Counted from the first letter of the stretch, positions 44,243 through 63,402 are shown. The stretch: DNA of 64,000 nt from Deltaproteobacteria bacterium (GCA_016234845.1 JACRNP010000030.1:1-64000); one strand, 5' to 3'. The notes: generated from the sequence alone by a model not told the origin. Numbers and translations are program-made.

Positions 44243-44927
44243 CGCATGCCGGAACGCCTTGATCCTGCTGGTGCTTCTTTCCGCGGCCGCGGTTCCCGAA
44301 GGCGTCCTCTCCGCGGAAGACGCGATGCGCGGCTGGAGGGAATCGACGTCGTCCGGGTTGTGGAGCCCAGCCCCCGAGAGGCGCGCCGGGTTCACCGACA
44401 ACGGCGTTTCCGTCGAGATGACGCTTCCCCCCGGGACGGGAGTCGCGTACTCCCGCTCCGGCCGGTTCATGCACGACAACGCGGCGATTCGCCTCGCCAC
44501 CGACAACGTGAACACGTCGGGGAACGAATATTATCCCGGAGAGGCGAACTTCCCGGTCGCGGTCACCTTCGTTTTCGGCGACGACTCGCTGAGGCTGGGG
44601 GTGAAGCAACGGGTGTGGCTCTTCTTCCGGCAGTTGTGGAACGGGTTCACCCCGTCCGGCATCCGCCTGACCTACGCCTGGGGAAACCGGCTCCCCGTGG
44701 GATCGATGTACCGCTTGTGGGAGGAGGAGACGGTGTTCGTCCTGGCCGGCCCCGACGAGGTCGGGAAGGCGGTCAACGCCGTCCGACGGATCCGGGACGA
44801 TTTCCGGGCGGCGTACGGCAGGCCGCCGAAAGGTCCCGTCACCGAGGTGAAGCTGCGGGCCGGAAGGCCGTCCGGGGAGAAGGGGTCGGCGCGCTCCGCC
44901 GCCACGGTGCGGTTTCCGGCCGATTGA
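44238..44927 (+). CDS. Secreted hypothetical protein (DUF3047-like)
   Basis: Signal peptide MRNACRNALILLVLLSAAAVPEG; no catalytic motif recognised. Confidence 0.55.
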   Translation, partial: RNACRNALILLVLLSAAAVPEGVLSAEDAMRGWRESTSSGLWSPAPERRAGFTDNGVSVEMTLPPGTGVAYSRSGRFMHDNAAIRLATDNVNTSGNEYYPGEANFPVAVTFVFGDDSLRLGVKQRVWLFFRQLWNGFTPSGIRLTYAWGNRLPVGSMYRLWEEETVFVLAGPDEVGKAVNAVRRIRDDFRAAYGRPPKGPVTEVKLRAGRPSGEKGSARSAATVRFPAD

Positions 44928-44949
44928 TCCGCCCGCGAACCCGAGAGTG

Positions 44950-46050: not shown

Positions 46051-46112
46051 AGCCACCCCGGCGAACGGACAGCGATGAACATCCTTCGTTGTGCTACTAT
46101 ACGTCACAAACG

Positions 46113-47561: not shown

Positions 47562-47565
47562 GCCG

Positions 47566-48792: not shown

Positions 48793-49523
48793 GCTTCCGC
48801 CGCCGGTGGGGGCGACGCCGCACGGCGCCGGTTATGGACGGGCAGGTCCTCCACGATCCGACCGTCGCGGAAACGGACGATCCTTCGCGCGTACCCGGAG
48901 ATGTCCGGCTCGTGCGTCACCAGGACGAGGGTGATCCCGCGCTCCTCGTTCAGCTGCTGGAAAATTCCCAGGATCTCGTCGCTCGTCGCGGAGTCGAGGT
49001 TTCCCGTCGGCTCGTCCGCCAGGAGGAGGGCCGGGGTGTTGACGATCGCGCGGGCGATGGCCACGCGCTGCTGCTGCCCTCCCGAGAGCTGGCTCGGGAG
49101 ATGGTGGGAGCGTTCCTCGAGCCCGACGGCGGAGAGCGCGGCGGACGCCCTGTCCCGCCGGACGGCGGTCGGCGTTCCGTCGTAGATCATCGGCAGCTCG
49201 ACGTTCTCCCGCGCGGAGAGCCTCGGCAGGAGGTTGAATCCCTGGAAGACGAAGCCGATCCGGTTCCGCCGGAGGACCGCCCGCGCGTCGCGCGAGAGGC
49301 CCGCCACCTCCTCTCCGTCGAGCCGGTAGCTTCCCGACGTGGGGCGGTCGAGGCATCCGAGGATGTTCATCAGGGTGGATTTCCCCGATCCGGAGGCGCC
49401 CATCACCGCGACGAAATCCCCCGCCAGGATGGACAGGTCCACCCCCTTCAGCGCCTCGACGCGGACGTCTCCCAGAAGGTACGTCTTCACGAGTCCGCCG
49501 ATCTCGATCGCCGCGGTGCCCAT
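48789..49523 (-). CDS. MacB-type ABC transporter ATP-binding protein
   Basis: [35 protein letters not shown]. Confidence 0.9.
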
Positions 49524-49529
49524 CGCGCG

Positions 49530-50726
49530 CTACCGGATCCCCCCGAATCCCATTCCGGGGGGGCTGCCGCCGCCGTTCTTTTTCTGGCCGGTCTCGCCCG
49601 TCACGAGCGCATCGCCGTCCTTCAGGGGGCCGTCCAGCAGCTGCGTGAACGTCCCGTTCGACACCCCGGTGCGGATCGTCACGGGGGCCGGCCTGCCGTC
49701 CTTGCCCAAGATGTAGACCTTCTGGCCGGCCGGCTCCTTCTCCCGTTCCCGCTTCTTCCCTTCGGCCCTCTCCTTCGAGTCCGCAGGGCGGTACCGCAGC
49801 GCGGCGTTGGGGATCTTCAGGACGTCCTCGTACTTTTTCACCTCGATCGTCACGTTGGCGGTCATCCCGGGTTTCAGGGAAAGATCCCGGTTGTCGACCC
49901 GGACGACGACGTTGTACGTGACCACGTTCTGGGTGACGATCGGCGAGTTGCGGACCTGCTCCACCCTCCCCGAGAACACCTTCTCCGGGTACGCATCCAC
50001 GGTGAAGGTCGCGGTCTGCCCCGGGATCGCCCGGCCGATGTCCGACTCGTCCACGTTCGTGTCGATCTGCATCTTCGTCAGGTCCTGCGCGATGGAGAAG
50101 AGGGTCGGCGTCTGGAAGCTCGCCGCCACCGTCTGGCCGACGTCCACGCTGCGCGAGATGACGATCCCGTCCACCGGGGAGCGGATGGTGGCGTACTCCA
50201 GGTTGGTCTGCGCGGTGTTCCGGGACGCCTCCGCCTGGCGGAGCGCCGCCTCGGCGCTCCGTTTCTGGGCGAGCGCCTGCTCGTAGGCGGTCTGCGCCGA
50301 ATCGACGTCGGCCTGCGCCACGAACCCGCTCCGGATCAGCTCCTGGTTCCTCCGGTACGTCCGATCCGTGTCGATCACCCCCACCTGCGCCCTCTCGAGG
50401 GATGCCTTGGCGTTTTCGACCGCCGCCTGCGCCTGGACCAGCGCCGACTCGAGGAGTCGCGGATCGACCTGCGCGATCACCTGTCCCTTCCGCACCCGCG
50501 AGTTGAAGTCGACGAAGATCTGCTGGATCGTTCCGGAGATCTGGCTTCCGACCGACACGGTGGTCACCGCGTTGATGTTCCCCGTGGCCGTGATCGCGTC
50601 GATGATCACGCCCTTCTCGACCTTCGCGGTCCGGAACACCGATCCCTGGGGCGACTTCGTAAACCAGGCGTACGCGCCGGCGGAAATCGCCAGGGCGATC
50701 GCAACGGCGACCGCTGCCTTCCTCAT
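49530..50726 (-). CDS. Periplasmic adaptor (membrane fusion protein, HlyD/MacA family)
   Basis: N-terminal TM MRKAAVAVAIALAISAGAYA, coiled-coil, beta-barrel/MP domains; ATGA overlap with upstream tolC. Confidence 0.88.
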   Translation of the reverse strand: MRKAAVAVAIALAISAGAYAWFTKSPQGSVFRTAKVEKGVIIDAITATGNINAVTTVSVGSQISGTIQQIFVDFNSRVRKGQVIAQVDPRLLESALVQAQAAVENAKASLERAQVGVIDTDRTYRRNQELIRSGFVAQADVDSAQTAYEQALAQKRSAEAALRQAEASRNTAQTNLEYATIRSPVDGIVISRSVDVGQTVAASFQTPTLFSIAQDLTKMQIDTNVDESDIGRAIPGQTATFTVDAYPEKVFSGRVEQVRNSPIVTQNVVTYNVVVRVDNRDLSLKPGMTANVTIEVKKYEDVLKIPNAALRYRPADSKERAEGKKREREKEPAGQKVYILGKDGRPAPVTIRTGVSNGTFTQLLDGPLKDGDALVTGETGQKKNGGGSPPGMGFGGIR

Positions 50727-52228
50727 CGGGTTCCCTTCCGCGCCTTCGATGCGATCGATTTTCCTTCGACCGCCAGGTTGTGCCGGTCGAGCAGTTCCCC
50801 CGTGCTCCGGTAGAACTCGGTCACCGCGACCTGGTAATCCGCCAGGGCGCCTACCAGCCCCTCCTTCGCCGCCACCAGCTGCGATTCGGCGTCCAGCAGA
50901 TCTTTCGTCGTGGCCAGCCCGAGCTTCTGCCGCTTCTCGTACGACTCGAACCGGACGCCGGCGACGGCGACCCCCTTCCGGGCCACCTCGATCTGCCGGT
51001 ACCGCGTTTCGAGGGCGCGGAGGGCCGTCCGGACCTCGAGCGCCACCGACTCCTCGACGGACCGCAGCGTCACCCGGGCCTGCCCGGCCTTCAGCCGGTT
51101 CGCCTCCAGCTCCGCCAGGGCGGATGAGTTTCCGATGGGAAAGGAGAAGTTGAGGGCGACCGACCAGTTCGGGTACTTCCCGGAAGCCATGTCCTCGAAC
51201 CCTTCTCCGTACGATTTCCCAAGCCCGGTCACGCCGACCGTTCCCGCGAGCGAGAGGGAGGGGAGCGCCAGGTTTCGGGAGACCTTCTCCGAGAACTCGC
51301 CGCTGTGGACGCCGACGCGCGCCCTGACCAGCTCCGGGCGTTTCCGGAGCGCGACGGCGATCGCCGCCTCCTCCGTCGTGTCGATCCGCTCGGCGACCGA
51401 CCCCACGACGGGAACGATCTCTCCCGGTTCCTTCCGCTGCAGGAAGACCCCGAGGCCGTCGGCCGCCTCCCGGCGCGCCCGCTCCGACGCGAGCAGGTCC
51501 GTCTCGCGCGACAGGACCCCCAGCTCGGAGTCCAGGAGCTGAAACGACGCGAGTACGCCCGCCTTCACCCGCGCCTCGTTCTCCTCGTGGATCCTCCGCG
51601 CGACGGCCAGGGACGCCCTGCGCGTCTCCAGGTTCTCCCGCGCCTTGTACAGGTCGTAGAATCGGCCGCTGGCGGCGGACGCCGTGCTCTCCGCCTTCTG
51701 CCGCCAATCCGCCAGCGAGACGTCGGCGGAGTCCTGGGCGAGCGTGATCCCCCGCTCGGTCACTTCGCGTCCCCACCCCTGGAGGACCGGCTGGGTGAAC
51801 GAGAAGGAGAGCTGGGGATTGGCGTACCTCGAGAAGGAGGTCCCCTGGTTGTCGGCGAACCAGGCGTTGTTGACGGAAACGGACGCGGTCCCGCCGGTGG
51901 GGACCAGCCTCTGGACGCCGGCGTCGAAGTCGAAGAACCGCTGCCGGTCGGCCGTCGCCGACCCGGGCGCGACCTGGGCGTCCTTTCCCCTGTGGTCCAG
52001 CAGCGCGGTCAGCCGCGTGTCGTATATGCCCCGGGCGCCCCGGATGCCCGCCTCCGCGATCGCGGGGGAAAAGGTCTGCACCTGGAGGTCCAGGTTGTTC
52101 TCCACCGCCAACCGGATGGCGTCCTCCACCGCCACCGCGACCTCGCCGGCGCGGACGTCGGAGGAAGCGAACAGCGGCAGGGAAAGTAGAAGCGCCAGCA
52201 GGGTCCGCACCGTCCTCATGGAAACCAT
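50723..52228 (-). CDS. TolC-family outer membrane efflux protein
   Basis: Signal peptide ...LLSLPLFASSDVRA; two repeated halves with helical-hairpin heptads typical of OEP. Confidence 0.85.
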   Translation of the reverse strand: MVSMRTVRTLLALLLSLPLFASSDVRAGEVAVAVEDAIRLAVENNLDLQVQTFSPAIAEAGIRGARGIYDTRLTALLDHRGKDAQVAPGSATADRQRFFDFDAGVQRLVPTGGTASVSVNNAWFADNQGTSFSRYANPQLSFSFTQPVLQGWGREVTERGITLAQDSADVSLADWRQKAESTASAASGRFYDLYKARENLETRRASLAVARRIHEENEARVKAGVLASFQLLDSELGVLSRETDLLASERARREAADGLGVFLQRKEPGEIVPVVGSVAERIDTTEEAAIAVALRKRPELVRARVGVHSGEFSEKVSRNLALPSLSLAGTVGVTGLGKSYGEGFEDMASGKYPNWSVALNFSFPIGNSSALAELEANRLKAGQARVTLRSVEESVALEVRTALRALETRYRQIEVARKGVAVAGVRFESYEKRQKLGLATTKDLLDAESQLVAAKEGLVGALADYQVAVTEFYRSTGELLDRHNLAVEGKSIASKARKGTR

Positions 52229-52299
52229 CCGTCAGGTTGATATCCGTGCATTATATAATCAGACGAAGTCCGGCACTCATTTCATACAAGGGGGTTCCG

Positions 52300-52890
52300 A
52301 TGCGCAAGCTGCTCATCGCCGCGGGAGCGTTCCTGCTCTTCTGCGGGGCGGCGTCCGGCGCGGACACCGCCCGCAAAGGGGGCAAGCCCGTGGTTACCAT
52401 GACGACGAGCCTGGGGGTCATCAAGCTGGAACTGTACCCGGAAAAGGCGCCGGTCACCGTCGCCAACTTCCTCGCGTACGCGAAGGAGGGCCACTACGAC
52501 GGCCTGATCTTCCACAGGGTCATCGGGAACTTCATGATCCAGGGCGGCGGCTTCACGCCCGACATGAAGGAGCGGGGGACGAAGCGGCCCCCGATCAAGA
52601 ACGAGGCGGACAACGGCCTTGCGAACGACCGTGGCACGATCGCGATGGCGCGGACCATGGTCGTGGATTCGGCCACCGCACAGTTCTTCATCAATACGGT
52701 GAACAACCCCCCCTTGAACCATCGTTCGAAGACCCGGGAAGGGTACGGCTACGCCGTCTTCGGGAAGGTGATCGAGGGGATGGACGTGGTCGACAAGATC
52801 CGCGCGGTCCCCACCGGCTCGGTCGGGATGTTCCAGGACGTGCCGAAGAAGCCGGTGACGATCCAGAAAGTGACGGTCGCCGAAAAGTAG
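52300..52890 (+). CDS. ppiA: Peptidyl-prolyl cis-trans isomerase (cyclophilin type), periplasmic
   Basis: Signal peptide MRKLLIAAGAFLLFCGAASGA; ...FHRVIGNFMIQGGGF...TIAMAR...SQFFIN. Confidence 0.9.
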   Translation: MRKLLIAAGAFLLFCGAASGADTARKGGKPVVTMTTSLGVIKLELYPEKAPVTVANFLAYAKEGHYDGLIFHRVIGNFMIQGGGFTPDMKERGTKRPPIKNEADNGLANDRGTIAMARTMVVDSATAQFFINTVNNPPLNHRSKTREGYGYAVFGKVIEGMDVVDKIRAVPTGSVGMFQDVPKKPVTIQKVTVAEK

Positions 52891-52896
52891 GCCGGG

Positions 52897-52925
52897 GCCG
52901 CCCCCGGTTCACCGCCGGGGGCGGC
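52897..52925. terminator. GC-rich perfect hairpin between convergent ppiA and uspA (putative bidirectional terminator)
   Basis: GCCGCCCCCGG-ttcaccg-CCGGGGGCGGC (11-bp stem); only a weak T-run on the uspA side. Confidence 0.45.
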
Positions 52926-52931
52926 ATCGAC

Positions 52932-53417
52932 TCACGGTACGTTCAGGTACCATTCGTCGCCGCGGTGCTCCGGGACGGCGGACCGCTCGGGCTTGACCAG
53001 CATCAACGTCCGCCGCGAGGCGTGCAGCACGCTCTCCGCAACGCTCCCCATGACCAGCCGTGAGATGCCGCTCCTGCCGTGGGTGCTCATCACGATCAGG
53101 TCGGCGTCCTCCATCTCGGCCGTGTGGAGGATCGCGTCGGCGGGGGGACGGTCGTCCACACGGATCCGCACGGCGATCCCCGCCTTTCGGAGGGGAGAGG
53201 CGGTCCGCTCGAGGTACTCCGAAGCGCTCCGCATCGCCTCCTGCAGGATCCTTGCGTCCGCCACGAGGACCGCTTCGGGGACGACCGGCATCGGCATGCC
53301 GACGGCCTGCAGGAGGAGGATCTCGGCGCCGGAAGCCCGGGCGATCTCCTCGGCGTGGGGGACGGCCCGCTCCGCGAGGGCGGAGCCGTCCAGCGGAACA
53401 AGCACCTTCCTGTACAT
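52932..53417 (-). CDS. uspA: Universal stress protein (UspA family)
   Basis: MYRKVLVPLDGS...VMSTHGRSG...; GGGGGA RBS before ATG 53417 (ORF-track start 53468 less likely). Confidence 0.85.
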   Translation of the reverse strand: MYRKVLVPLDGSALAERAVPHAEEIARASGAEILLLQAVGMPMPVVPEAVLVADARILQEAMRSASEYLERTASPLRKAGIAVRIRVDDRPPADAILHTAEMEDADLIVMSTHGRSGISRLVMGSVAESVLHASRRTLMLVKPERSAVPEHRGDEWYLNVP

Positions 53418-53497
53418 GGCGGTATCCCCCTTTCCGGTTGGAGAAGATCCGGGTTGACGGGACGACACCCCTGTTTGGGTACAGTATACTTCCGGGC

Positions 53498-54403
53498 ATG
53501 CGGAGAGACCAGATCTTCCGGGTGGAGGGGGAGGAGTCGGGGAGGCGTCTCGACCGGGTCCTGCGGGACCGCTTCCCCGGATTGCCGGCGCGGAGCCTGC
53601 GGTTCGCCTTCGACGCCGGGGCGATCCGGGTGGGAGGGATTCCCGCCCCGAAGGGCCGCCCGCTCCGGGAGGGAGAGGTGGTGTCCGCGGACGCCCTCGC
53701 GGAACCGGAGGACTGGCTGCCCGTCCCGTGCGACCTGCCCGGCGCTTCGGTCGCCTACGAGGACGCGGAGGTCGCCGTCCTGTGCAAGCCTCCGGACGTC
53801 CACACGGAGCCGCAGCGGCCGAACGAATCCGGGACCCTCGCCGGGTTCCTGCTCCGGCGGTTCCCCGGGGTGGCCGGAATCTCGCCGGAGCCCGGTCTGA
53901 CGCTCCTCACGCGGCTGGATTACGCGACCAGCGGTGCGGTCCCCGCCGCTCTGACCGAAGCCTCGCTGGATTTCCTGCGTCGCGAGCGGGAGAAGGGGCG
54001 GGTCGTCAAGGGATACCTGTGCATGGTCCGGGGAGAGGTCGCCGCACCGATGTCGATTCCGTGGGAGATCCGCGCGGAAGGGGGGGAAGCTGTCCGGGTG
54101 CTTCGCGGCCGTGACGATCCCGACCCGCACCGGTGGACCGCGATCGCACCGATACGGACCGGGAACGGGTGGACGCTGCTTCGGGCGACGATTTCCCGCG
54201 GGAAACGGCACCAGATCCGTGCCCATCTGGCCGCCGCGGGATACCCGATCGTGGGAGACCGGCGGTACTCCGCCGTCCCGGCGTCCGGTCCGGGGAAGAG
54301 CCGCCTGATGCTGCACGCGTGGGAGGTGTCGTTCCGGCATCCGGCAACGGGGGAGACGCTGCGGGTGTCATGCCCCGCTCCCGAGGAGTTCGGGGCTACC
54401 TGA
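53498..54403 (+). CDS. RluA-family pseudouridine synthase
   Basis: ...RLDYATSGAV... catalytic Asp motif and ...GKRHQIRAHL... motif. Confidence 0.82.
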   Translation: MRRDQIFRVEGEESGRRLDRVLRDRFPGLPARSLRFAFDAGAIRVGGIPAPKGRPLREGEVVSADALAEPEDWLPVPCDLPGASVAYEDAEVAVLCKPPDVHTEPQRPNESGTLAGFLLRRFPGVAGISPEPGLTLLTRLDYATSGAVPAALTEASLDFLRREREKGRVVKGYLCMVRGEVAAPMSIPWEIRAEGGEAVRVLRGRDDPDPHRWTAIAPIRTGNGWTLLRATISRGKRHQIRAHLAAAGYPIVGDRRYSAVPASGPGKSRLMLHAWEVSFRHPATGETLRVSCPAPEEFGAT

Positions 54404-54914
54404 CGGAAGGTGCGCCGGATTCAAGCTCCCGGAGCCGCTCGCGGTCGCCCGGAAGCTCTTCGCTGTATTTCTTGTACAACTCGAGGTCTTCCTGTGAAAC
54501 GAACCGGTTTCCCAGGGGATTCAGTATCTGGGACCGCTTGTTGTCGACCTTTTCGAGGAACCGTTCCTTCGCATCGATCTTGGCCCGTAGAGATTCCGCC
54601 TGCCGGGACGGGTCGTCCCCGACCGGCAGGGTGACCCGGTCTCCCAGAGAGGTGTCGTTCGAAGGGGCGGATGCGCCGTTGACCCCGCCGGGAGAAGGGA
54701 GCGTTGGGCTTCCGACGGTGGACAGGGACGGTTTTCCCGGGATCGGCGGCTCCTTGAGGATCGGCTGTATCTTTCCGCGGAGATGCTCCGGTATCGCGGA
54801 CGGGTTGTCGGTGAAGTGGATGACCCCTCGCTCGTCCTCCCACCGGTAGATGTCGGCATCCGCCGGGGCCGCGCAAGGGAACAGCGCCACGGCCGCCAAC
54901 GCGGCGAGCGACAT
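54396..54914 (-). CDS. DUF4124-domain secreted protein
   Basis: Signal peptide MSLAALAAVALFPCAAPADA then IYRWEDERGVIHFTDNP (DUF4124 signature); C-terminal coiled-coil. Confidence 0.7.
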   Translation of the reverse strand: MSLAALAAVALFPCAAPADADIYRWEDERGVIHFTDNPSAIPEHLRGKIQPILKEPPIPGKPSLSTVGSPTLPSPGGVNGASAPSNDTSLGDRVTLPVGDDPSRQAESLRAKIDAKERFLEKVDNKRSQILNPLGNRFVSQEDLELYKKYSEELPGDRERLRELESGAPSVR

Positions 54915-54973
54915 CGTCAGGTACCGTCCCCGGTTCGTCGTTCCGGACCGATCGGCCATGCTTTGATAGTACA

Positions 54974-55183
54974 ATGAAGCGATCCGCGCTGGCAATGAAA
55001 GGGGTCCCGTTGGGCAAGGCCGCCGTACTCCTGTTCCTGGCCGCGTTCTCGTGGCCGTTCCTGGGCGTGATCGACGCTCCCGCGACGATCCTCGGGATCC
55101 CGTCGTTTCTCGCGGGAATATTCCTGTTCTGGGCCGTCCTCGTCTACGCGCTCTTCACGGCGAGCCGCCGGACGGACGGGTAG
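54974..55183 (+). CDS. Small 2-TM membrane protein preceding an SSS-domain gene (DUF3311/YjcH-like accessory)
   Basis: 69 aa, two hydrophobic helices; immediately upstream of the SSS-domain kinase, as small accessory proteins often are for SSS transporters. Confidence 0.55.
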   Translation: MKRSALAMKGVPLGKAAVLLFLAAFSWPFLGVIDAPATILGIPSFLAGIFLFWAVLVYALFTASRRTDG

Positions 55184-55198
55184 GGAGGCGGGGCGCCG

Positions 55199-58100
55199 TT
55201 GCCGGGGACGCTGTTCCAGGGGGGATTCGTCCTCGCGGTGCTGACCGGGTACCTGCTGCTCCTCTTCGGGATCGGGTACCTCGGCGAGCGGAAATTCGAC
55301 GCGATCCGCGCGCGCGGACTCGACCGGTACGTCTACGTGTTCGCGGCGGGAGTCTACTGCACCTCCTGGACCTTCTACGGATGCATCGGCAACGCGGCGC
55401 AGAACGGCCCGTCGTTCCTCGCCCTCTTCATCGGACCCTCGGTCTTCGCCCTGACCTGGTGGACGGTCCTCCGCAAGCTCGTGCGGTTCTGCCGGGCCCA
55501 CAACGTCACATCCGTTCCCGACCTCCTGAGCGTCCGGTACGGCGGGACCCCGTGGCTGGGGGCGTTGGCGACCCTCTTCCTCGTCCTGGGAAGCGTTCCG
55601 TACATCTCCCTTCAGCTGCGCGCCGTCGGGCTCACGTACGACGCCATCTCGGGCGGCGGGGGCTTCGCGGCCGCGATCGACCCGATGCTCGTCGTCGCGC
55701 TGTTCCTGGGCGCCTTCGCGCTCTTCTTCGGGGGGCGGTACCTGGACTTCACCCGTCCCCAGGGGGGAGTCCTGACCGCCGTCGCGACGGAATCGGTGGT
55801 CAAGCTCGTCATCCTGGTGGCCGCCGGAGTCTTCGTCTGCTACGGGCTGTTCGACGGAATCGGGGACGTCTACGCCCGCTTCCGGTCCCACCCGGAGTGG
55901 GGGAAGCTCACCGGCCTCTCGGGCGCCCCGGGCAACGGGTTCGCCCGCTGGACCGCGTACTTCGTCATCGCCGTGATCGATGTCCTTCTGCTCCCGCGCC
56001 AGTTCCACGTCTTCGTCGTCCAGAACGGGGACGAATCGCACATCCGGACCGCGATGTGGATGTTCCCGCTCTATCTCCTCCTCATCAACCTGTTCGTGAT
56101 CCCGATCGCGTTCGGCGGACTTCTGCTGGGGCTGCCGGCCTCGGCGGGAGACAACTTCATCCTCGCCATTCCGATGCTGTCCGGGCAGAAGGGATTGAGC
56201 CTCCTCATCTTCATCGGAGGCTTCTCCGCCGCCACCGCGATGGTGCTGGTCTCCTCCGTCGCGCTCGGCAAGATGGTGGCGAACAACCTGGTCATCCCCG
56301 GAATCCTCCGGGCCCGGAGGGGGTTTCACGCATACGGGTACCTGCTGGCGGCCACGCGGGCGTCGATCCTGGCGGTCATCGGGCTGGGGTACGTGTACGC
56401 GCGCTGGATGTCCGGGAACGCCGCGCTCATGGAGATCGGCGTGATCTCGTTCGTGGCGGTGGCGCAGTTCGGGCCGCCGGTCTTCGGCGGCATGTACTGG
56501 AAGGGGGGGACCGCCGGAGGCGCGGTCCTGGGGCTGTGCGCCGGCTTCACCGCCTGGTTCTACACCCTGATCCTGCCGGCGGCGGCCAAGGCCGGGTTTC
56601 TCGATCCCTCCTTCGTGGCGAACGGGCCGTTCGGGATCGCCCTTCTGCGCCCCGCGGACCTCCTCTCCGCCGGGATCGGCGATCCGGTGGGCAACGCCGT
56701 TTTCTGGTCCCTCTTCCTGAACGTCCTCGGGTACGCCGCGGGGTCGCACCTGTTCGCCGCGGCGGGCGCCGCCGTCCCCGGAGTCCACCCCGGCGGCGCG
56801 GAGGTCCCCGTCCCCGGGTCCCCCCCCGGGAGGGGCGCGCATTATCCGTCCCTCGAGGACATCGAGGCGGTGATGACACGGTACGCAGGACACGAGAAGG
56901 AGAAGGAGGTCGGGGAGGTCGTCCGCGAGATCCGCGAGATCAAGAGCCGCGGCCAGACCCGCGAGGCGGTGATCCGGCAGATGGAGCTCCCGGCGCGCCT
57001 CGAGAGGATCCTCACCGGCTCCATCGGCGTCCTTTCCGCCCGGAGCGTCCTGCGCGACATGCTGCCGCTGACGCTGGCGGACGCCCGGACGCTGGTCGAG
57101 TCGTTCCGGGAGATGGAGAAGGATCTGGCGTCCACCCGGGAGGCGGTGTCCCACAAGGAGGAGCAGATCCGCGCGCGGGAGCGGCTGCTGGCGAGCGTGG
57201 TCCACAGCATCGACGACGGGATCGTCGCGTTCGACGCGGGGGGGAGGATCACCGCCGTGAACGAAGGCGGGTGCCGCCTCTTCGGGCGGCCGGAACGGGC
57301 GATGATCGGGGAGGGGTTCCAGCTCCTCATCCGGGACACGCCGTACCGGGAGAAGCAGCGGATCATCGCCCGCTCCACCTACCGCCACGGCCGGTGGCGG
57401 GGAGAGGTGGATTTCGTCCGCGGGGACGGCACGCAGACGGCGGGGCTGGTCTCCACGGCGCGGATCAACGACGAGCGCGGCCGCGCGGCGGGATTCGTCG
57501 CTTCGTTCAAGGACCTCTCGGAGATCAAGGCGATGCAGAACAAGATGATCCAGAGCGAAAAACTCGCCTCGCTGGGGCAGATGGCGGCGGGGGTGGCGCA
57601 CGAGATCCGCACCCCGCTGGGGTCGATCAAGATGAGCACGCGCCTCCTTCGGGAGGAGGCGGCGGGTTCCGAGGCCTCCGAGATGCTCGGGACGATCCGG
57701 GACGCCGTCGCGTCGATGGAGGTGATCGTCAACGAGCTGCTCGACTACACCCGGGACATCGCCCTGCAGCTCGACGACTACGACCTGGTCTCGATCGCCC
57801 GATCGTCGGTCTTCGGCCTGGAGGACGAGTGGCGCCGCCGGGGCGTCTCGGTCGGCGTGGAGTCCGGGGAAGGCCCTGTGAGCGCGATCGTGGACGGCGT
57901 GCGGATCAAGCAGGTGCTGACGAACATCGTGAAGAACGCGGTGGAGGCGGCCCCGGACGTCCGGGGCCGGGTCACCGTCCGGCTCGCGGGGGGCAACGGG
58001 GCCGTACGCATCACGGTCGAGGACAACGGCCCGGGGATGACGCCGGAGGAGCTGGGGAACGTCTTCCAGCCGTTCTACACCAACAAGGCGCAGGGGACGG

Positions 58101-58240
58101 GGCTCGGGATGTCGATCGTGAAGCGGCTGGTGGAGCTCCACGGCGGGGAGGTGCGGATCGATTCGGCCGCCGGGCGGGGCACGACCGTTTCGGTGGACCT
58201 GCCGGGCACCCCCTTCGCCGGGACGGGGAGGGCGCAATGA
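55199..58240 (+). CDS. CbrA-like hybrid sensor: sodium:solute symporter (SSS) domain - STAC - PAS - HisKA - HATPase_c histidine kinase
   Basis: 1013 aa: ~13 TM SSS permease (res 1-~480), STAC-like helical linker, PAS, H-box AHEIRTPLGSIKMS, N/G boxes ...GTGLGMSIVKRLVELHGGEV. Confidence 0.85.
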   Translation: MPGTLFQGGFVLAVLTGYLLLLFGIGYLGERKFDAIRARGLDRYVYVFAAGVYCTSWTFYGCIGNAAQNGPSFLALFIGPSVFALTWWTVLRKLVRFCRAHNVTSVPDLLSVRYGGTPWLGALATLFLVLGSVPYISLQLRAVGLTYDAISGGGGFAAAIDPMLVVALFLGAFALFFGGRYLDFTRPQGGVLTAVATESVVKLVILVAAGVFVCYGLFDGIGDVYARFRSHPEWGKLTGLSGAPGNGFARWTAYFVIAVIDVLLLPRQFHVFVVQNGDESHIRTAMWMFPLYLLLINLFVIPIAFGGLLLGLPASAGDNFILAIPMLSGQKGLSLLIFIGGFSAATAMVLVSSVALGKMVANNLVIPGILRARRGFHAYGYLLAATRASILAVIGLGYVYARWMSGNAALMEIGVISFVAVAQFGPPVFGGMYWKGGTAGGAVLGLCAGFTAWFYTLILPAAAKAGFLDPSFVANGPFGIALLRPADLLSAGIGDPVGNAVFWSLFLNVLGYAAGSHLFAAAGAAVPGVHPGGAEVPVPGSPPGRGAHYPSLEDIEAVMTRYAGHEKEKEVGEVVREIREIKSRGQTREAVIRQMELPARLERILTGSIGVLSARSVLRDMLPLTLADARTLVESFREMEKDLASTREAVSHKEEQIRARERLLASVVHSIDDGIVAFDAGGRITAVNEGGCRLFGRPERAMIGEGFQLLIRDTPYREKQRIIARSTYRHGRWRGEVDFVRGDGTQTAGLVSTARINDERGRAAGFVASFKDLSEIKAMQNKMIQSEKLASLGQMAAGVAHEIRTPLGSIKMSTRLLREEAAGSEASEMLGTIRDAVASMEVIVNELLDYTRDIALQLDDYDLVSIARSSVFGLEDEWRRRGVSVGVESGEGPVSAIVDGVRIKQVLTNIVKNAVEAAPDVRGRVTVRLAGGNGAVRITVEDNGPGMTPEELGNVFQPFYTNKAQGTGLGMSIVKRLVELHGGEVRIDSAAGRGTTVSVDLPGTPFAGTGRAQ

Positions 58241-59625
58241 AGCGGAAGATCCTGCTGGTGGACGACGAGGAGATCTTCCTGCGCCCGCTGGCGCGCACCA
58301 TCACCTCCTCCGGGTACCTCGTGGAAACGGCGGGAAACGCGGCAGAGGCGAAGGAGAAGCTGAAGAAGGGAGAATTCGACCTGGTGATCAGCGACGTCCG
58401 CATGCCGGGGACCGACGGCATCGCCTTCACCCGGTCGATCCGCGAGGAGTTCGGCGACCTGCCGGTGATCCTCATGACCGCGTACGGGAGCATCCGGACC
58501 GCCGTGGACGCGATGAAGGCGGGCGCGCACGACTACCTGCTGAAGCCGTTCGAGCCGGACGAGATCCTGCTTCACGTGCGCCGCACGCTGGAGATCCAGG
58601 ACCTGCGGACGGCGGACCGGTTCCGCACCGCCCGGAACCAGGAGACGTTCGACCTGCGGAAGACGCTGGTGTGGGAGAGCCCCGCGATGAGCCGTCTCCA
58701 GCGGGACATGGCCGACGTCCTGCCGCTCGACACCACGGTGCTCCTGACCGGAGAGACGGGGACGGGGAAGCAGCTGATCGCGCGCGCGCTCCACTACAAC
58801 GGGCCGCGCCGCGACGGGCCGCTGATCGAGGTCAACTGCGCGGCGATCCCGGAGACCCTCTTCGAGACGGAGCTGTTCGGGCACGTCCGCGGGGCGTTCA
58901 CCGGCGCGGTGTCCGACCGGAAGGGGATGTTCCAGCTCGCCCACGGAGGGACCCTGTTCCTGGACGAGATCGGGGAGGTCCCGCTGCCGCTGCAGCCGAA
59001 GCTCCTGACCGCGATCCAGGACAGGACGTTCCTGCGCGTCGGCGGGGCGCGGCAGATCGACGTGGACGTGCGGATCATCGCGGCGACCAACAAGTCGCTC
59101 GAGGAGGAGGTGGCGGCGGGGAGGTTCCGCAACGACCTCTTCTTCCGCCTGTCCGTCTACCCGCTCAAGGTGCCGCCGCTCCGGGAGCGGGCCGAGGACA
59201 TCCCGGTGCTGGCCGACTTCTTCCTGCGGCGGTTCGCCCGGAAGTGCGGAAAGAAGATCGCGCAACTTTCCGTCGCGGATGTCGACGCCCTGCGGGCGTA
59301 CGACTGGCCGGGCAACGTCCGGGAACTGGAGAACTTCGTCGAGCGGGCGGTGATCCGGGCGTCCGGGGAGCGGGTGGATTTCGCCTCGGTGCTCTCCGGG
59401 ACTCCGAGGAAAGGCGTTTCGGAGGGAGTGCCGCTCCACCCGGAACTTCCGTTCCGCGACGCCAAGGAGAAGGTCGTCTCCGCCTTCGAAAGGGGGTACA
59501 TCCGCGAGTCGCTGCGAAAGGCGGACGGCAAGCTGACGGAGGCCGCGCGGATCGCCGGGATGGACAACAAGAACTTTTCCGAGAAGATGAAGCGGCATGG
59601 GCTGACGCTCGATAATTTTTGGTAG
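58237..59625 (+). CDS. Sigma-54-dependent NtrC-family response regulator (CbrB-like)
   Basis: Receiver (KILLVDDEE...DLVISDVRMPG...), AAA+ sigma54-interaction (GETGTGKQL, GAFTGA, ...ESELFGH.. equivalents), C-terminal Fis-type HTH; ATGA overlap with kinase. Confidence 0.92.
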   Translation: MKRKILLVDDEEIFLRPLARTITSSGYLVETAGNAAEAKEKLKKGEFDLVISDVRMPGTDGIAFTRSIREEFGDLPVILMTAYGSIRTAVDAMKAGAHDYLLKPFEPDEILLHVRRTLEIQDLRTADRFRTARNQETFDLRKTLVWESPAMSRLQRDMADVLPLDTTVLLTGETGTGKQLIARALHYNGPRRDGPLIEVNCAAIPETLFETELFGHVRGAFTGAVSDRKGMFQLAHGGTLFLDEIGEVPLPLQPKLLTAIQDRTFLRVGGARQIDVDVRIIAATNKSLEEEVAAGRFRNDLFFRLSVYPLKVPPLRERAEDIPVLADFFLRRFARKCGKKIAQLSVADVDALRAYDWPGNVRELENFVERAVIRASGERVDFASVLSGTPRKGVSEGVPLHPELPFRDAKEKVVSAFERGYIRESLRKADGKLTEAARIAGMDNKNFSEKMKRHGLTLDNFW

Positions 59626-59656
59626 TTTTACCAAACCAGCGCTTTCCTGTTTGGTA
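59619..59656. promoter_or_regulatory. Putative enhancer (UAS): TACCAAAC-N12-GTTTGGTA perfect inverted repeat plus an extra TTGGTA half-site
   Basis: tTTGGTAgtttTACCAAACcagcgctttcctGTTTGGTAtaaa; lies ~70-90 bp upstream of the -24/-12 element, overlapping the 3' end of the regulator gene. Confidence 0.55.
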
Positions 59657-59707
59657 TAAACACCCTCCCTCCGCACCTCCACCCCTTTACAAACAGCGGT
59701 TTGAAAA

Positions 59708-59722
59708 TGGCACGGGGATTGC
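59708..59722 (+). promoter_or_regulatory. Sigma-54 (-24/-12) promoter
   Basis: TGGCAC-ggggA-TTGC matches consensus TGGCAC-N5-TTGCW; 35 nt upstream of the livG-like ATG; directly downstream of a sigma54 activator gene. Confidence 0.75.
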
Positions 59723-59756
59723 GTCATTCAGACCGAATATCGTCCAGGGAGACTTT

Positions 59757-60548
59757 ATGCCGCTGCTGCGCATCGACGACGTGCACCTGTCCTTCGGCGG
59801 GGTCAAGGCGATCAACGGGGTCTCGATCAACGTGGAGAAGGGGACGATCCACGCGATCATCGGGCCCAACGGCGCCGGGAAGACCTCCGTCTTCAACTGC
59901 ATCTCTTCCGTGTACCGGCCGCAGCGCGGGGCGGTCTACTTCGAGGACCGCAAGGTCACCGGGATGAAACCCGACCACGTGACCGCCCTGGGGATCGCCC
60001 GCACCTTCCAGAACATCGCCCTGTTCCACCACATGACCGTGCTCGACAACCTGATGCTGGGCCGCCACCTGTTCCTGAAGAGGGGCGCCCTCGCCGGCGG
60101 GATCTTCCTCGGACCCGCGCGCACGGAGGAGATCGAGAACCGGAAGGTGGTCGAGGATATCGTCGACTTCCTCGAGATCGAGAACATCCGCAAGAAGCCG
60201 GTCGGGACGCTCGCGTACGGCCTTCGAAAGCGCGTCGAGCTCGGCCGCGCCCTGGCGCTCAAGCCCAAGCTCCTCCTCCTCGACGAGCCGATGGCGGGGA
60301 TGAACCTCGAGGAGAAGGAGGACATGGCCCGTTTCGTCCTCGACATCAACGAGGAGTGGGGGGTGACGACGCTCCTCATCGAGCACGACCTGGGCGTCGT
60401 GATGGACGTAAGCCACAGGGTGAGCGTGCTGGACTTCGGGGTGAAGATCGCCGAGGGGACGCCCTCGGAGGTCGCCAACGACCCGCACGTGATCAAGGCG
60501 TACATCGGGGAGGAAGACGACTTCCTGCGGGAAATGGAGGCGCGCTGA
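59757..60548 (+). CDS. Branched-chain-amino-acid-type (Liv/HAAT family) ABC transporter ATP-binding protein
   Basis: GPNGAGKTS, ...LAYGLRKRVELGRAL.., LLLLDEPMAGMN; GGGAG RBS. Confidence 0.88.
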   Translation: MPLLRIDDVHLSFGGVKAINGVSINVEKGTIHAIIGPNGAGKTSVFNCISSVYRPQRGAVYFEDRKVTGMKPDHVTALGIARTFQNIALFHHMTVLDNLMLGRHLFLKRGALAGGIFLGPARTEEIENRKVVEDIVDFLEIENIRKKPVGTLAYGLRKRVELGRALALKPKLLLLDEPMAGMNLEEKEDMARFVLDINEEWGVTTLLIEHDLGVVMDVSHRVSVLDFGVKIAEGTPSEVANDPHVIKAYIGEEDDFLREMEAR

Positions 60549-60552
60549 CCCG

Positions 60553-62460
60553 ATGAAGGAGATCCTGAAAACCCACGGCACCTTCCCGCGGCTGCTCTCC
60601 CGCAACGCGGAGCTCTTCGGCGACCGGAAGGTCGCCATGCGCGAGAAGGAGTTCGGCATCTGGCAGGAGTACAGCTGGAAGGAGTACCACGACCACGTGA
60701 AGTACTTCTCCCTCGGGATGGTCTCGCTGGGCCTCTCCCGCGGCGACAAGGTGGCGATCATCGGCGACAACCGCCCCGAATGGGTGTGGGCCGAGGTCGC
60801 GGCGCAGGCAGCCGGCGCGGTGCCGCTGGGGCTGTACCAGGACTCGACGCTGAAGGAGGTCTCCTACGTCATCGACCATTCCGACGCCTCGTTCGTCGTG
60901 GCGGAGGACCAGGAGCAGGTCGACAAGATCCTCGACATGAAGGAGCAGCTTCCCAAGGTCCGCTACATCATCTACAGCGACCCGCGGGGGATGCGGGGGT
61001 ACAAGGAGCCGTTCCTCCTCGACTTCAAGGAGGTCGAGAATTTCGGCCGCGACCTCGAGCAGCGGGAGCCGGGGCTGTACGCCGCGAACGTCGAGGCCAC
61101 GAAGTACGAGGACCTCGCGCTCATCTGCTACACCTCCGGGACCACCGGTTTCCCGAAGGGGGCGATGCTGTCGTTCCGCAACCTGCTGAGCATGGCGGCC
61201 AACCTGATGGAGGTGGACTCGAAGGTCGGGAAGGACGAATTCGTCTCCTTCCTTCCGCTGGCGTGGATCGGAGAGCAGATGATGTGCCTCTCCAGCGCGC
61301 TGCTCACCGGGTTCACGGTGAACTTCCCCGAGAAGCCGGAGACGGTGCAGGAGAACATCCGCGAGATCGGCCCCACCATCATGTTCTCCCCGCCCCGGAT
61401 CTGGGAGAACATGACCTCCACCGTGCAGGTGAAGGTCATGGACGCCTCCGCGCTCAAGCGGAGGATGTACGGGTGGGCGCTCCCGGTCGGGTACGAATAC
61501 GCCGACGCCGTCTTCCGGAAGCAGGCGATTCCCGCGTCCCTCCGGTTCCGGTACCGGCTCGCGTACGCGCTGGTCTTCCGGGCGCTGAAGGACCGCCTGG
61601 GCCTTCTCCGCATCCGGTCGGCCTCCACCGGCGGGGCCGCGCTGGGGCCCGACGTCTTCAAGTTCTTCAACGCGATGGGAGTCAACCTGAAGCAGATCTA
61701 CGGCCAGACCGAGATCTCCGGCATCTCGTGCATCCACCGGGAGGGGGACATCAACTTCGACTCGGTGGGGAAGCCGATCCCCGAGACGGAGATCCGGCTG
61801 TCTGCGAGCGGAGAGATCCTCTCGCGCTCCCCGTCGGTGTTCCTCGGGTACTACAAGAACCCGGAGGAGACGGAGAAGGCCTTGAGCGACGGCTGGCTCC
61901 ACTCGGGCGACGCGGGGTACTTCACGGAGGACGGCCACCTGATCGTCATCGACCGGGTGAAGGACGTCATGCACCTGAACGACGCCACCCGGTTCTCGCC
62001 GCAGTTCATCGAGAACAAGCTGAAATTCTCCCCCTACATCAAGGAGTGCGTCTGCCTGGGCGACAAGCGCGACTTCATCGCCTCCATGCTCTGCATCGAC
62101 TACCCGAACGTCGGGAAGTGGGCGGAGAGCCGCCGGATCTCCTACACCACCTACACCGACCTGGCGGCGAAGCCCGAGGTGCTGGAACTGCTGGCGAAGG
62201 AGGTGGAGAAGGTGAACGCCACGCTCCCGGAGACGACGCGGATAAAGAAGATCGTCCCGCTCTACAAGGAGCTGGACGCGGACGACGACGAGCTGACCCG
62301 CACGCGGAAGGTCCGCCGGGCGTTCGTCGGGGACCGGTACCGGCACGTGATCGAGGGGATGTACGACGGGGCCATGGAGATCCCGATCGACGCCGTCATC
62401 AAGTACCAGGACGGGAAGACGTCCAACATCAAGACGACGCTCGGCGTCCGGAACCTGTGA
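60553..62460 (+). CDS. AMP-dependent synthetase/ligase (long-chain/aromatic acyl-CoA ligase) embedded in ABC transporter operon
   Basis: 635 aa; AMP-binding motif YTSGTTGFPKGAMLS; ...GYGQTE...; ...GWLHSGDAGY... Confidence 0.85.
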   Translation: MKEILKTHGTFPRLLSRNAELFGDRKVAMREKEFGIWQEYSWKEYHDHVKYFSLGMVSLGLSRGDKVAIIGDNRPEWVWAEVAAQAAGAVPLGLYQDSTLKEVSYVIDHSDASFVVAEDQEQVDKILDMKEQLPKVRYIIYSDPRGMRGYKEPFLLDFKEVENFGRDLEQREPGLYAANVEATKYEDLALICYTSGTTGFPKGAMLSFRNLLSMAANLMEVDSKVGKDEFVSFLPLAWIGEQMMCLSSALLTGFTVNFPEKPETVQENIREIGPTIMFSPPRIWENMTSTVQVKVMDASALKRRMYGWALPVGYEYADAVFRKQAIPASLRFRYRLAYALVFRALKDRLGLLRIRSASTGGAALGPDVFKFFNAMGVNLKQIYGQTEISGISCIHREGDINFDSVGKPIPETEIRLSASGEILSRSPSVFLGYYKNPEETEKALSDGWLHSGDAGYFTEDGHLIVIDRVKDVMHLNDATRFSPQFIENKLKFSPYIKECVCLGDKRDFIASMLCIDYPNVGKWAESRRISYTTYTDLAAKPEVLELLAKEVEKVNATLPETTRIKKIVPLYKELDADDDELTRTRKVRRAFVGDRYRHVIEGMYDGAMEIPIDAVIKYQDGKTSNIKTTLGVRNL

Positions 62461-62471
62461 GGGAACAAGGC

Positions 62472-63368
62472 ATGACGACGCAATACCTTCTTCAGCTCGT
62501 CATCAGCGGACTCGTCGTGGGGAGCATCTACGCCGCCGTCGCGCTGGGCTTCACGATCATCTACAAGGCGACACGGGTGGTCAACTTCGCGCAGGGCGAG
62601 TTCCTGATGACGGGGGCGTACGTCTGCTACGCCTTCGTCGTGCAGATGCACGTCCCGTTCTGGGCGGCGCTCCTGCTCACGATCCTCTTCTCGCTGGTGA
62701 TGGCGGTGCTCCTCGAACGGATCGTGCTGCGGCCGATGATCGGCGAGCCGATCATCTCCATCATCATGGTCACCATCGGGCTTTCGCTCATCATGCGGTC
62801 CCTCGTCACCGCGATCTGGGGGAACGACATCCTCGTGTACGAACCGAAGCTCTTCCCGCAGGAAACCGTGTCGCTGGGCGGCGTCCCCGTCTCCCAGGAG
62901 TTCATCTGGTGCTTCGTCCTGTCGATGGTCCTCCTGGCGATCTTCTCCGCCTTCTTCAAGTATTCGAAGGCCGGGGTGGCGATGCGGGCCACGGCGTTCA
63001 ACCAGCAGGCCGCGCAGTCGATGGGGATCTCGGTCAAGCACATCTTCGCCCTGTCGTGGATCATCTCCGCCGTCGTATCCGGGATCGGCGGGGTCCTGAT
63101 CGGCAACATCAACGGGATCAACAGCTCCCTCTACCATTTCGGCCTCAAGGTCTTCCCCGCGACGATCCTCGGCGGGCTCGACTCGATCCTCGGGGCCGCC
63201 CTCGGGGGGCTGATCATCGGGCTGCTCGAGAACCTCTCGGACGGCCTCTGCAAGGCGTACCTCGACCTGAGCGGCGTGAAGGAGGTCGCCCCGTACGTCA
63301 TCCTGGTCGTCATCCTCATGATCAAGCCGTACGGGCTGTTCGGCACGAAAGAAATCGAGCGGGTCTGA
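62472..63368 (+). CDS. Liv/HAAT-family ABC transporter permease (LivH-like)
   Basis: 298 aa, 8-10 TM; ...GFTIIYKATRVVNFAQGEF... typical LivH. Confidence 0.88.
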   Translation: MTTQYLLQLVISGLVVGSIYAAVALGFTIIYKATRVVNFAQGEFLMTGAYVCYAFVVQMHVPFWAALLLTILFSLVMAVLLERIVLRPMIGEPIISIIMVTIGLSLIMRSLVTAIWGNDILVYEPKLFPQETVSLGGVPVSQEFIWCFVLSMVLLAIFSAFFKYSKAGVAMRATAFNQQAAQSMGISVKHIFALSWIISAVVSGIGGVLIGNINGINSSLYHFGLKVFPATILGGLDSILGAALGGLIIGLLENLSDGLCKAYLDLSGVKEVAPYVILVVILMIKPYGLFGTKEIERV

Positions 63369-63402
63369 AGGACCGGCGGGGCGGGAAAAGGAGAACCACG
63401 GG

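Follow-up and report, generated by a model that had tools for sequence, protein, structure and literature searches.

Within a 64,000-nt stretch of DNA from a bacterium labelled Deltaproteobacteria (GCA_016234845.1, JACRNP010000030.1:1-64000; hereafter the window), positions 54,974 to 63,402 carry genes for a small membrane peptide, a sensor histidine kinase and an NtrC-family sigma-54 activator, followed by a −24/−12 promoter and the first genes of an operon encoding a Liv-type ATP-binding cassette (ABC) transporter and an acyl-coenzyme A (acyl-CoA) ligase. All of our analyses were computational, and from them we consider it likely that the locus forms a sigma-54 two-component module of the SLC5/STAC family, complete in itself and wired to the uptake and activation of a carboxylic acid, with the regulators most likely switching on the adjoining importer-plus-CoA-ligase operon.

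In the mechanism that we propose, the sensor kinase, which is built on a 13-helix SLC5 (LeuT-fold) domain followed by four-helix STAC, PAS and HisKA/HATPase domains, is probably complexed with the small two-helix peptide, as CbrX is with CbrA, and would autophosphorylate at H801 and pass the phosphate to D53 of the activator. Dimers of the phosphorylated activator would then bind two tandem TTGGYA-N4-TRCCAA palindromes, centred at approximately −107 and −75 and thus three helical turns apart, and would form an active AAA+ ring whose GAFTGA loops remodel the sigma-54 holoenzyme at TGGCAC-N5-TTGC. Activation would turn on livG, the ligase gene, livH and livM, along with genes beyond the window for a binding protein, LivF, a PaaK-like ligase and a DUF169 protein, and the operon would import a carboxylic acid via a HAAT-type ABC system and trap it as its CoA thioester.

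The two-component system and its conservation

The window comes from the uncultivated phylum MBNT15/Deferrimicrobiota. Its nearest proteins were found in "Deltaproteobacteria" metagenome-assembled genomes (98% identity, GCA_003598145.1), and the one close species-level genome match was Candidatus Deferrimicrobium (81%). Our orthologous set comprised 11 loci from the uncultivated MBNT15/Deferrimicrobium lineage, with kinase identities of 51–98%, and their intergenic regions were anchored on the promoter and repeats for a phylogenetic footprint. Gene order was the same in all 11: small open reading frame (ORF), kinase, regulator, livG, ligase (~635 aa), livH and livM, then genes for a Peripla_BP_6 binding protein, LivF, a PaaK-like ligase (~425 aa) and a DUF169 protein. 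Two wider scans complemented this set. A kinase-sensor scan of species-representative genomes matched at least 592 stretches, from which 80 loci were kept; locus L009 was the sole relative from the MBNT15 clade among them, and the other 79 were distant and had other outputs. A ligase scan of metagenome contigs returned 80 loci with the livG/ligase/livHM cassette at 47–86% identity, approximately 70 of which had readable upstream sequence.

The kinase gene (55199..58240; like all genes from the small ORF to livM, on the + strand) encodes 1013 aa from a TTG start preceded by GGGAGG. Pfam identified a PAS domain (aa 663–775, nt 57185–57523), a HisKA domain that includes H801 (aa 792–852, nt 57572–57754) and a HATPase domain (aa 899–1003, nt 57893–58207), and found no receiver (Response_reg) domain in the kinase. 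The catalytic motifs are intact, with H801, N909 in the N box, DNGPG at 942 (G1) and GTGLG at 966 (G2). For the cytoplasmic part, the best named NCBIfam model was AtoS, at 247 bits against a cut-off of 646. Over residues 1–640, both Pfam and NCBIfam were silent even at E = 10, the Pfam SSF and STAC models included. We assigned an SLC5 domain (approximately aa 1–520, nt 55199–56758) and a STAC domain (approximately aa 552–639, nt 56852–57115) to this part, and hence the architecture SLC5-STAC-PAS-HisKA-HATPase to the whole, because of PF00474 (SSF) matches in homologues, a profile match to a solved structure, and structure prediction followed by a fold search.

Many kinase homologues gave faint or weak PF00474 matches. 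A seven-sequence profile of the N-terminal part matched chain 10ed_A ("histidine kinase," 606 aa) with an E-value of 1.4e-79 over residues 6–629, in an alignment that runs through the STAC region up to chain residue 594; by blastp, the window kinase is 28% identical to this chain in the SLC5-STAC region. This chain appears to represent the SLC5-STAC part of Pseudomonas CbrA as solved by cryo-EM (PMC13022988), since the residues numbered in that paper coincide with those expected in the chain. An AlphaFold model of aa 1–640 (predicted local distance difference test, pLDDT, 81; predicted template modeling score, pTM, 0.83) contained a disordered linker and then four helices (552–583, 587–609, 611–621, and 626–639) at the position expected for STAC. 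When this model was compared with the PDB using Foldseek, the top 33 matches were all SLC5 transporters, including NIS, SGLT1/2, SiaT, SMCT1, CHT1, DUR3, and vSGLT, with target-normalised TM-scores of approximately 0.52–0.76. Foldseek with a model of the full-length kinase gave histidine kinases alone among the 50 matches listed; the model of aa 1–640 was a separate one. The protein thus joins an SLC5 transporter domain and a STAC four-helix bundle to a PAS-HisKA-HATPase transmitter, and the CbrA-like architecture that an initial annotation of this DNA had given to a 1013-aa sensor, without a receiver, is supported by the 10ed profile, the fold search and Pfam.

We also mapped the residues of the CbrA histidine pocket (PMC13022988) onto the window kinase through the 10ed profile alignment and checked them over 55–57 family members. 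Seven positions were invariant in the family, namely those of CbrA Y51 (Y53 in the window), S53 (T55), W55 (W57), A56 (T58), F71 (F73), F406 (F418) and the Na2-site residue K196 (K202), and those of Y75 (F77) and F248 (A258) were variable.

The regulator (462 aa, 58237..59625) starts with an ATG that overlaps the kinase TGA as ATGA, and Pfam detected in it Response_reg, Sigma54_activat, AAA_lid_14, and HTH_8. It has the full complement of an NtrC-family sigma-54 enhancer-binding response regulator: a receiver with its aspartate (D53), an AAA+ domain with Walker A/B motifs (GETGTGK at 172–178; LFLDE at 240) and GAFTGA (219–224), and a Fis-type helix-turn-helix (436–455). The overlap, domains and motifs agree with the earlier description of an adjacent, translationally coupled NtrC-family activator. 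Its best NCBIfam match, AtoC, scored 436 bits against a cut-off of 714, and the regulator is therefore no equivalog of any named regulator.

The third component, a 62-aa membrane peptide (54995..55183) predicted to form a two-helix hairpin, has an alternative upstream ATG at 54974. The initial annotation had correctly noted a small protein with two hydrophobic helices and had placed its start at 54974; the conserved ATG, however, is the one at 54995. Among loci with a gene call or a translated match, the ORF is kept as 60–74 aa and ends 1–15 nt before the kinase start or overlaps it, and among aligned relatives its conservation reaches down to 34% identity. The alignment has two hydrophobic segments, and P28, G41, P43, W53, and R66 are invariant. 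A profile of the small ORF gave no meaningful match to any chain in the PDB and did not show sequence homology to CbrX. According to a 2026 cryo-EM preprint, CbrX, the product of a small gene upstream of cbrA, folds into a helical hairpin that sits on transmembrane helices TM3 and TM8 of the CbrA SLC5 domain (PMC13022988), and by analogy of position, size and topology the small ORF can be regarded as its counterpart.

Promoter and candidate enhancer sites

The 131-bp spacer between the regulator gene and livG is relatively AT-rich (49.6% G+C vs. 67.8% for the whole window) and contains the promoter sequence TGGCAC-gggga-TTGC (TGGCACGGGGATTGC; 59708..59722, + strand), in which the −24 GG lies at 59709–59710 and the −12 GC at 59721–59722. 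Nothing else in the window matches it with one mismatch or fewer, and it stands 34 nt before the livG ATG, and the element TGGCAY-N5-TTG[CT] was found 29–41 nt before the livG ATG in each of the 11 orthologous loci. Consensus, distance to the gene and conservation are those of a sigma-54 promoter, for which sigma-54 dependence is predicted, as is a transcription start near 59734 from the position of the consensus. What had been described as a near-consensus −24/−12 promoter ahead of the operon is thus an exact one that is conserved throughout the lineage.

Upstream of this promoter lie two candidate enhancer sites. The first, TTGGTA-gttt-TACCAA (TTGGTAgtttTACCAA; 59619..59634, centred at approximately −107), is a perfect 16-bp palindrome that overlaps the TAG stop codon of the regulator gene (59623–59625). 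It is the sole match to TTGGYA-N4-TRCCAA within 2 mismatches in the window, where there are no further such sites, and it was recovered separately as an inverted repeat. The second, TTGGTA-taaa-CACCCT (TTGGTAtaaaCACCCT; 59651..59666, centred at approximately −75), is supported by a repeat search that returned a direct repeat, TTTGGTA, with 32-bp spacing. Across the 11 orthologous loci, the first palindrome fits the consensus at 10–12 of the 12 specified positions and the second at 9–12 (11–12 in L002, L005, L007, L009, L169, and L170), so that every locus has two tandem 16-bp TTGGYA-N4-TRCCAA palindromes, with centres 32–33 bp apart and an invariant N4 spacer. Two dyad-symmetric sites approximately three helical turns apart, with a −24/−12 promoter downstream, form the classical NtrC arrangement at glnAp2. 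Judged by sequence, the arrangement in the window appears NtrC-like, as at glnAp2, instead of CbrB-like.

The initial annotation had read the same region as an upstream activating sequence of the form TACCAAAC-N12-GTTTGGTA, with a third half-site nearby and with the half-site-N12-half-site geometry of CbrB. This motif is present as an exact 8-N12-8 palindrome (59629–59656) that is unique in the window (0.02 chance matches expected at three or fewer mismatches), and it consists of the two inner half-sites of the tandem palindromes; that three half-sites were seen follows from degeneracy in the right half of site 2. A single activator dimer might accordingly bind the two inner half-sites as CbrB binds its F1-R1 subsites, with the outer TTGGTA as an auxiliary third subsite. 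Conservation over the 11 loci is strongest in the inner half-sites, and the CbrB consensus, TGTTAC-N12-14-GTAACA-N15-19-GTAACA, likewise has three subsites with gaps of 12–19 nt (PMC8871633). We nevertheless regard this alternative as unlikely, given that the inner 6-mers stand 16 nt apart in five loci but 17 nt apart in the other six, whereas the N4 spacer never varies, and that six orthologues have two near-perfect N4 palindromes. The bases are also unlike those of the CbrB site, and the published CbrB consensus had no match in the window. More distant relatives point the same way: L010 has two perfect TGGTA-aatt-TACCA palindromes (TGGTAaattTACCA) 22 bp apart, with an inner gap of 6 nt, and in L008 the strong half-sites are two copies of TACCAA, also 22 bp apart, that are direct rather than inverted repeats. 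Because the N4 palindrome is the only such unit common to the orthologues, L010 and L008, among which these units lie two or three helical turns apart, we take it as the probable recognition unit. The 8-N12-8 motif itself thus stands, and the analogy with CbrB is not supported.

Another explanation of the repeat is that its 44-bp hyphenated form, which directly follows the regulator stop codon with 16-nt arms that are 81% complementary and a 12-nt loop, acts as an RNA hairpin that ends or stabilises the two-component transcript and not as an enhancer. A weak terminator-like hairpin with a ATAATTTTTG tail does occur in the final stretch of the regulator gene (59598–59611). No T-tract follows the repeat, however; its half-sites vary independently among loci without compensation (for example, TTGGCA...TACCAA in L169), and the 3 terminator-like matches in the region are no enrichment over the 2.8 in shuffled sequence. 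Moreover, in L009 and L169, extra genes separate the regulator from livG while the repeat and the promoter stay beside livG, which argues that the sites belong to the promoter and not to the 3′ end of the regulator gene. Taken together, these observations make a hairpin function very improbable. The insertions themselves differ: in L009 (12117–14090) they are genes in approximately 2 kb of internally repetitive DNA, and in L169 (10764–11864) there is a single inserted 366-aa protein without a Pfam match.

Whether the sites belong to this particular regulator can be judged from loci in which it is missing. None of the 80 metagenome cassette loci was linked to this two-component system, and in the approximately 70 cassettes without it and with readable upstream sequence, the sigma-54 promoter and the palindromes were both absent. 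In two of them, L089 (1–590) and L090 (1–500), the ligase is 85–86% identical to that of the window and the upstream sequence holds no kinase or regulator, no sigma-54 promoter and no palindromes, which suggests that the same cassette is under different control in close relatives. Conversely, the same palindrome occurs 3′ of a homologous regulator in the distant L010. It is on these three grounds, the insertions in L009 and L169, the cassettes that lack the sites, and L010, that we link the sites to this regulator.

The same comparisons bear on the possibility that the two-component system is global, as CbrAB is, or acts mainly elsewhere, with a different enhancer-binding protein at this promoter or with the operon as a minor target. 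CbrAB governs many targets via small RNAs (PMC8871633), our site search covered 64 kb of the genome, and in the distant relatives L173 and L174 an adjacent gene occurs without a recognisable promoter or site. On the other hand, system, sites and sigma-54 promoter are co-inherited in 11 of 11 loci and missing from the cassettes without the system, the palindrome accompanies a homologous regulator in a lineage as distant as that of L010, and no Rfam family, CrcZ-type RNAs included, reached threshold when the entire window was scanned. A mainly global or remote role is accordingly improbable, and local control of the adjoining operon remains the reading that we prefer.

A further palindrome, CAAAC-agcg-GTTTG (59690..59703, approximately −44 to −31), abuts the −24 element and occurs once in the window. 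Exact copies lie in L001 (14492) and L002 (14699), and it is recognisable in L003, L009, L169, L171, and L172, and absent in L005 and L007. It fits the operator consensus of PsrA, a fatty-acid-responsive TetR-type regulator (C/GAAAC-N2-4-GTTTG/C; PMC13104628), although this amounts to only 10 specified bases that are degenerate in more distant orthologues, and no gene for a matching TetR-type repressor was identified. The idea that it is an operator specific to the cassette is weakened by its absence from the approximately 70 cassettes without the two-component system. The element is short and travels with the two-component/sigma-54 loci and not with the cassette; it could serve a second regulator as operator, bind the activator weakly as a third site, or help to bend the DNA. 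Separately, an identical palindrome, TGGCAAAGATGCCA, was seen in three species of Thalassospira approximately 5.2 kb upstream of an SLC5/STAC kinase (L032, 4786; L035, 4846; L065, 4798).

The operon, its substrate and the likely signal

The operon begins with a LivG-type ABC ATPase (263 aa, 59757..60548; Pfam ABC_tran and BCA_ABC_TP_C), for which LivG was the best NCBIfam model (259 vs. a cut-off of 362). Between livG and livH lies the gene for an AMP-forming acyl-CoA ligase (635 aa, 60553..62460; Pfam AMP-binding and AMP-binding_C_3), whose best NCBIfam model was FadD11 (308 vs. 950) and whose PDB matches were generic fatty-acyl, feruloyl and luciferase-type ligases. A LivH-type permease follows (298 aa, 62472..63368; Pfam BPD_transp_2), with sub-cut-off NCBIfam matches to both UrtB and LivH (LivH, 119 vs. 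379), and then the N-terminal 199 codons of a LivM-type permease, an open frame from the ATG at 63403 that runs off the window at 64000; orthologous LivM proteins are 348 aa and match BPD_transp_2. The ATPase, 635-aa ligase and two permeases are those listed initially, in a finding whose end at 63400 falls just before livM. The further genes anticipated beyond the window, for a binding protein and LivF, were found in the orthologous loci along with those for the PaaK-like ligase (NCBIfam PaaK in L003, 192–208 vs. a cut-off of 646–700) and the DUF169 protein. The window thus holds LivG, LivH and the start of LivM from a HAAT (LIV-type) importer, and the binding protein and LivF are known from orthologous loci alone.

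The simplest alternative for this operon is a true LIV-I-type importer of branched-chain or other hydrophobic amino acids in which the ligases are passengers, so that the module would regulate amino acid uptake. The best named matches are indeed LivG, LivH and LivJ-type models, and the liv-type clusters of MBNT15/Deferrimicrobiota, predicted iron-reducing organotrophs with 11 such clusters, have been interpreted as amino acid importers (PMC9386147). The Liv matches are all below curated cut-offs, however, and the binding protein of the orthologues matched LivJ/LivK structures at an E-value of approximately 1e-6, its best solved relative being the uncharacterised 3eaf. In nearly all of the approximately 80 metagenome loci livG adjoins the ligase gene, usually in the order livG-ligase-livH and often with a PaaK-like ligase following, and the "branched-chain amino acid" binding proteins of this type in Rhodopseudomonas palustris seldom have Leu, Ile or Val as ligands; most of them bind aromatic, fatty or dicarboxylic acids instead and are encoded beside CoA ligases (PMC3223731). 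An amino acid importer is therefore a rather unlikely explanation. The embedding of the ligase in the transporter operon across these loci points instead to uptake of a carboxylic acid followed by trapping as a CoA derivative. Our literature search found nothing relevant on this cassette under sigma-54 control.

The sensor domain is very widespread, as the at least 592 matching stretches in species-representative genomes indicate, and its outputs differ; in many of these loci the kinase appears to be a hybrid, its core being followed at once by a receiver-like segment, and several lie near DUF294 and DUF4212 plus SSF genes. Closest in organization is a branch at 41–44% identity (L008, L010, L173, and L174) with the same small ORF, kinase and sigma-54 regulator. 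In L010 (bin HR37; regulator 49% identical), an acetate-CoA ligase (1076 bits vs. a cut-off of 657) and then an aliphatic amidase lie downstream; in L173 and L174, an acetyl-CoA synthetase is encoded immediately downstream of the regulator; and in L008 a DUF4212 protein and an SSF symporter (acetate-permease-like) follow. With its palindromes (14340–14375), sigma-54 promoter (14516–14530) and ligase and amidase genes (14580–17609), L010 resembles a module for acetate and acetamide.

As the signal, a small monocarboxylate or some related metabolic cue is probable. We favour a monocarboxylate-like ligand because relatives adjoin acetyl-CoA synthetase or acetate-permease-like genes and because the invariant pocket set is alike in members linked to acetyl-CoA synthetase or symporter genes and in those linked to the ABC cassette; these pocket alignments suggest that family members share a similar small ligand, for which a short monocarboxylate would be the simplest choice. 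The initial annotation had proposed that the SLC5 domain senses or co-transports the substrate of the operon, as it may; signal perception by CbrA reportedly does not depend on its SLC5 domain as an essential part (PMC9100948).

A broader reading, which we offer tentatively as a possibility, is that the module is part of a large undescribed branch of SLC5/STAC systems with sigma-54 output, a short-chain-carboxylate switch that acts through a conserved TGGYA-N4-TRCCA enhancer and whose targets changed in MBNT15, from acetyl-CoA synthetase and a symporter of the acetate-permease-like kind to an ABC importer that has acyl-CoA ligases built in and so couples uptake to CoA trapping. Such a branch would have members in uncultivated lineages, under the labels Rokubacteria/Methylomirabilota, Eisenbacteria and MBNT15, and in the thermophile-associated bin HR37, and its promoter may have a second operator abutting the −24 element. 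If true, this would contradict the claim that the CbrAB type of design, with its cbrX-cbrA-cbrB-crcZ synteny, is unique to Pseudomonadaceae (PMC8871633).

Several observations weigh against a locally wired carboxylate module. At the DNA level, site 2 matches at 9 of 12 positions, with a perfect left half and a degenerate right half. Among the 11 loci the inner half-sites are perfect in 10 and 9 and the outer right half in 4, so that conservation alone does not dispose of the half-site-N12-half-site pairing. The sites of the window and L001, at approximately −107 and −75, are unusually near the promoter, those of most orthologues being approximately 73–78 bp further upstream (centres 121–160 bp upstream of −24). 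In L173 (11371–11660) and L174 (11419–11500) we recognised no sigma-54 promoter or palindrome, and adjacency therefore does not always mean this wiring; the spacer of L173 has a direct repeat of approximately 90 bp instead. An RpoN box search of the 64 kb did not find rpoN in the window. At the protein level, every transporter and ligase match is below the curated NCBIfam cut-offs, and neither PDB nor NCBIfam comparisons assigned a substrate to the binding protein or the ligases. More generally, all functional statements made here are computational and concern an uncultivated lineage (PMC9386147).

Around the module, the upstream neighbourhood (approximately 44000–54960; synteny with L001, L002, and L003) is kept across MBNT15 loci and comprises a divergent DUF4124 gene, a pseudouridine synthase, a peptidyl-prolyl isomerase, a MacAB/TolC-like efflux operon and a multihaem cytochrome. 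The DUF4124 gene starts 14–35 nt from the small ORF, so that a promoter for the kinase-regulator operon would find hardly any space unless it lay within the coding sequence of DUF4124. DUF169, encoded by the final gene of the MBNT15 operon (L003, 22853–23105; L006, 15224–15464), recurs with relatives of this two-component system, and in three distant relatives a DUF169-URO-D fusion is encoded divergently upstream of it (L008, 5451–7295; L173, 2534–4390; L174, 4357–6201).

Relation to known systems

According to a 2022 paper on RpuS/R, CbrAB, CrbSR, and RpuSR, all from Proteobacteria, were the only characterised SLC5/STAC "transceptor" systems, and the initial view that the present system is uncharacterised in its lineage holds. 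The CbrXAB design of hairpin peptide, SLC5-STAC kinase and sigma-54 activator is now seen in an uncultivated iron-reducing phylum, with a cis-regulatory target so unusually clean and well footprinted that the step from regulator to DNA is directly testable. The comparison connects this family of sensors, in several phyla, with the uptake of carboxylates and their CoA activation, and it offers a way into one of the numerous ABC systems that are mis-annotated in MBNT15 genomes as "branched-chain amino acid" transporters.

The closest parallel is CbrX-CbrA-CbrB of Pseudomonas and Azotobacter, with which the locus shares the order of small hairpin peptide, kinase and regulator, the SLC5-STAC-PAS-HisKA-HATPase architecture without a receiver, an NtrC-family sigma-54 partner, the Na2-site lysine and much of the aromatic pocket (PMC13022988). 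The two systems differ at four pocket positions (CbrA S53 and A56, both Thr here; Y75, here Phe; and F248, here Ala), and the target here is an adjacent transporter/ligase operon instead of a crcZ-type RNA. Orthology with CbrAB was ruled out by the lack of crcZ, the different phylum, the 28% identity in the SLC5-STAC region, and a DNA site that differs in sequence and geometry.

Sensors of this family also lead to carboxylate genes in CrbS/CrbR of Vibrio and Pseudomonas (acetate) and RpuS/RpuR of Sinorhizobium (pyruvate), and distant relatives of the window system adjoin acs or DUF4212 and SSF symporter genes. CrbS/R turns on acs and RpuS/R the symporter gene mctP, that is, uptake and/or CoA activation of small carboxylates (PMC5715377, PMC9100948), and CrbS has been described as a hybrid kinase (PMC5715377). 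A system of the CrbS/CrbR type was ruled out, since the window kinase has no receiver and the regulator has Sigma54_activat and GAFTGA. CrbR, the partner of CrbS, is not known to be a sigma-54 activator. The target also differs from that of CrbS/R and RpuS/R in being an ABC importer with two acyl-CoA ligases.

With NtrB/NtrC at glnAp2, the locus has in common the two dyad-symmetric sites and the −24/−12 promoter, and AtoS/AtoC of E. coli, which controls short-chain fatty-acid catabolism, supplied the named models that scored highest, AtoC for the regulator and AtoS for the cytoplasmic kinase portion. These scores are far below the equivalog cut-offs, and the system differs from NtrB and AtoS in that its sensor module is an SLC5 transporter domain; the recognition sequence also differs. 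On the output side, HAAT-type importers such as those of the R. palustris cou and pim regions likewise combine a Liv-like ABC transporter and a Peripla_BP_6 protein with acyl-CoA ligases (PMC3223731), but here the ligase gene lies inside the operon, between livG and livH, and genes for a PaaK-like ligase and a DUF169 protein follow. The locus represents no new mechanism or new kind of system; it adds a new and well-defined example to a regulator family that is already known, and we read it as a new SLC5/STAC two-component family member, alongside CbrAB, CrbSR, and RpuSR, with a new and directly adjacent target.

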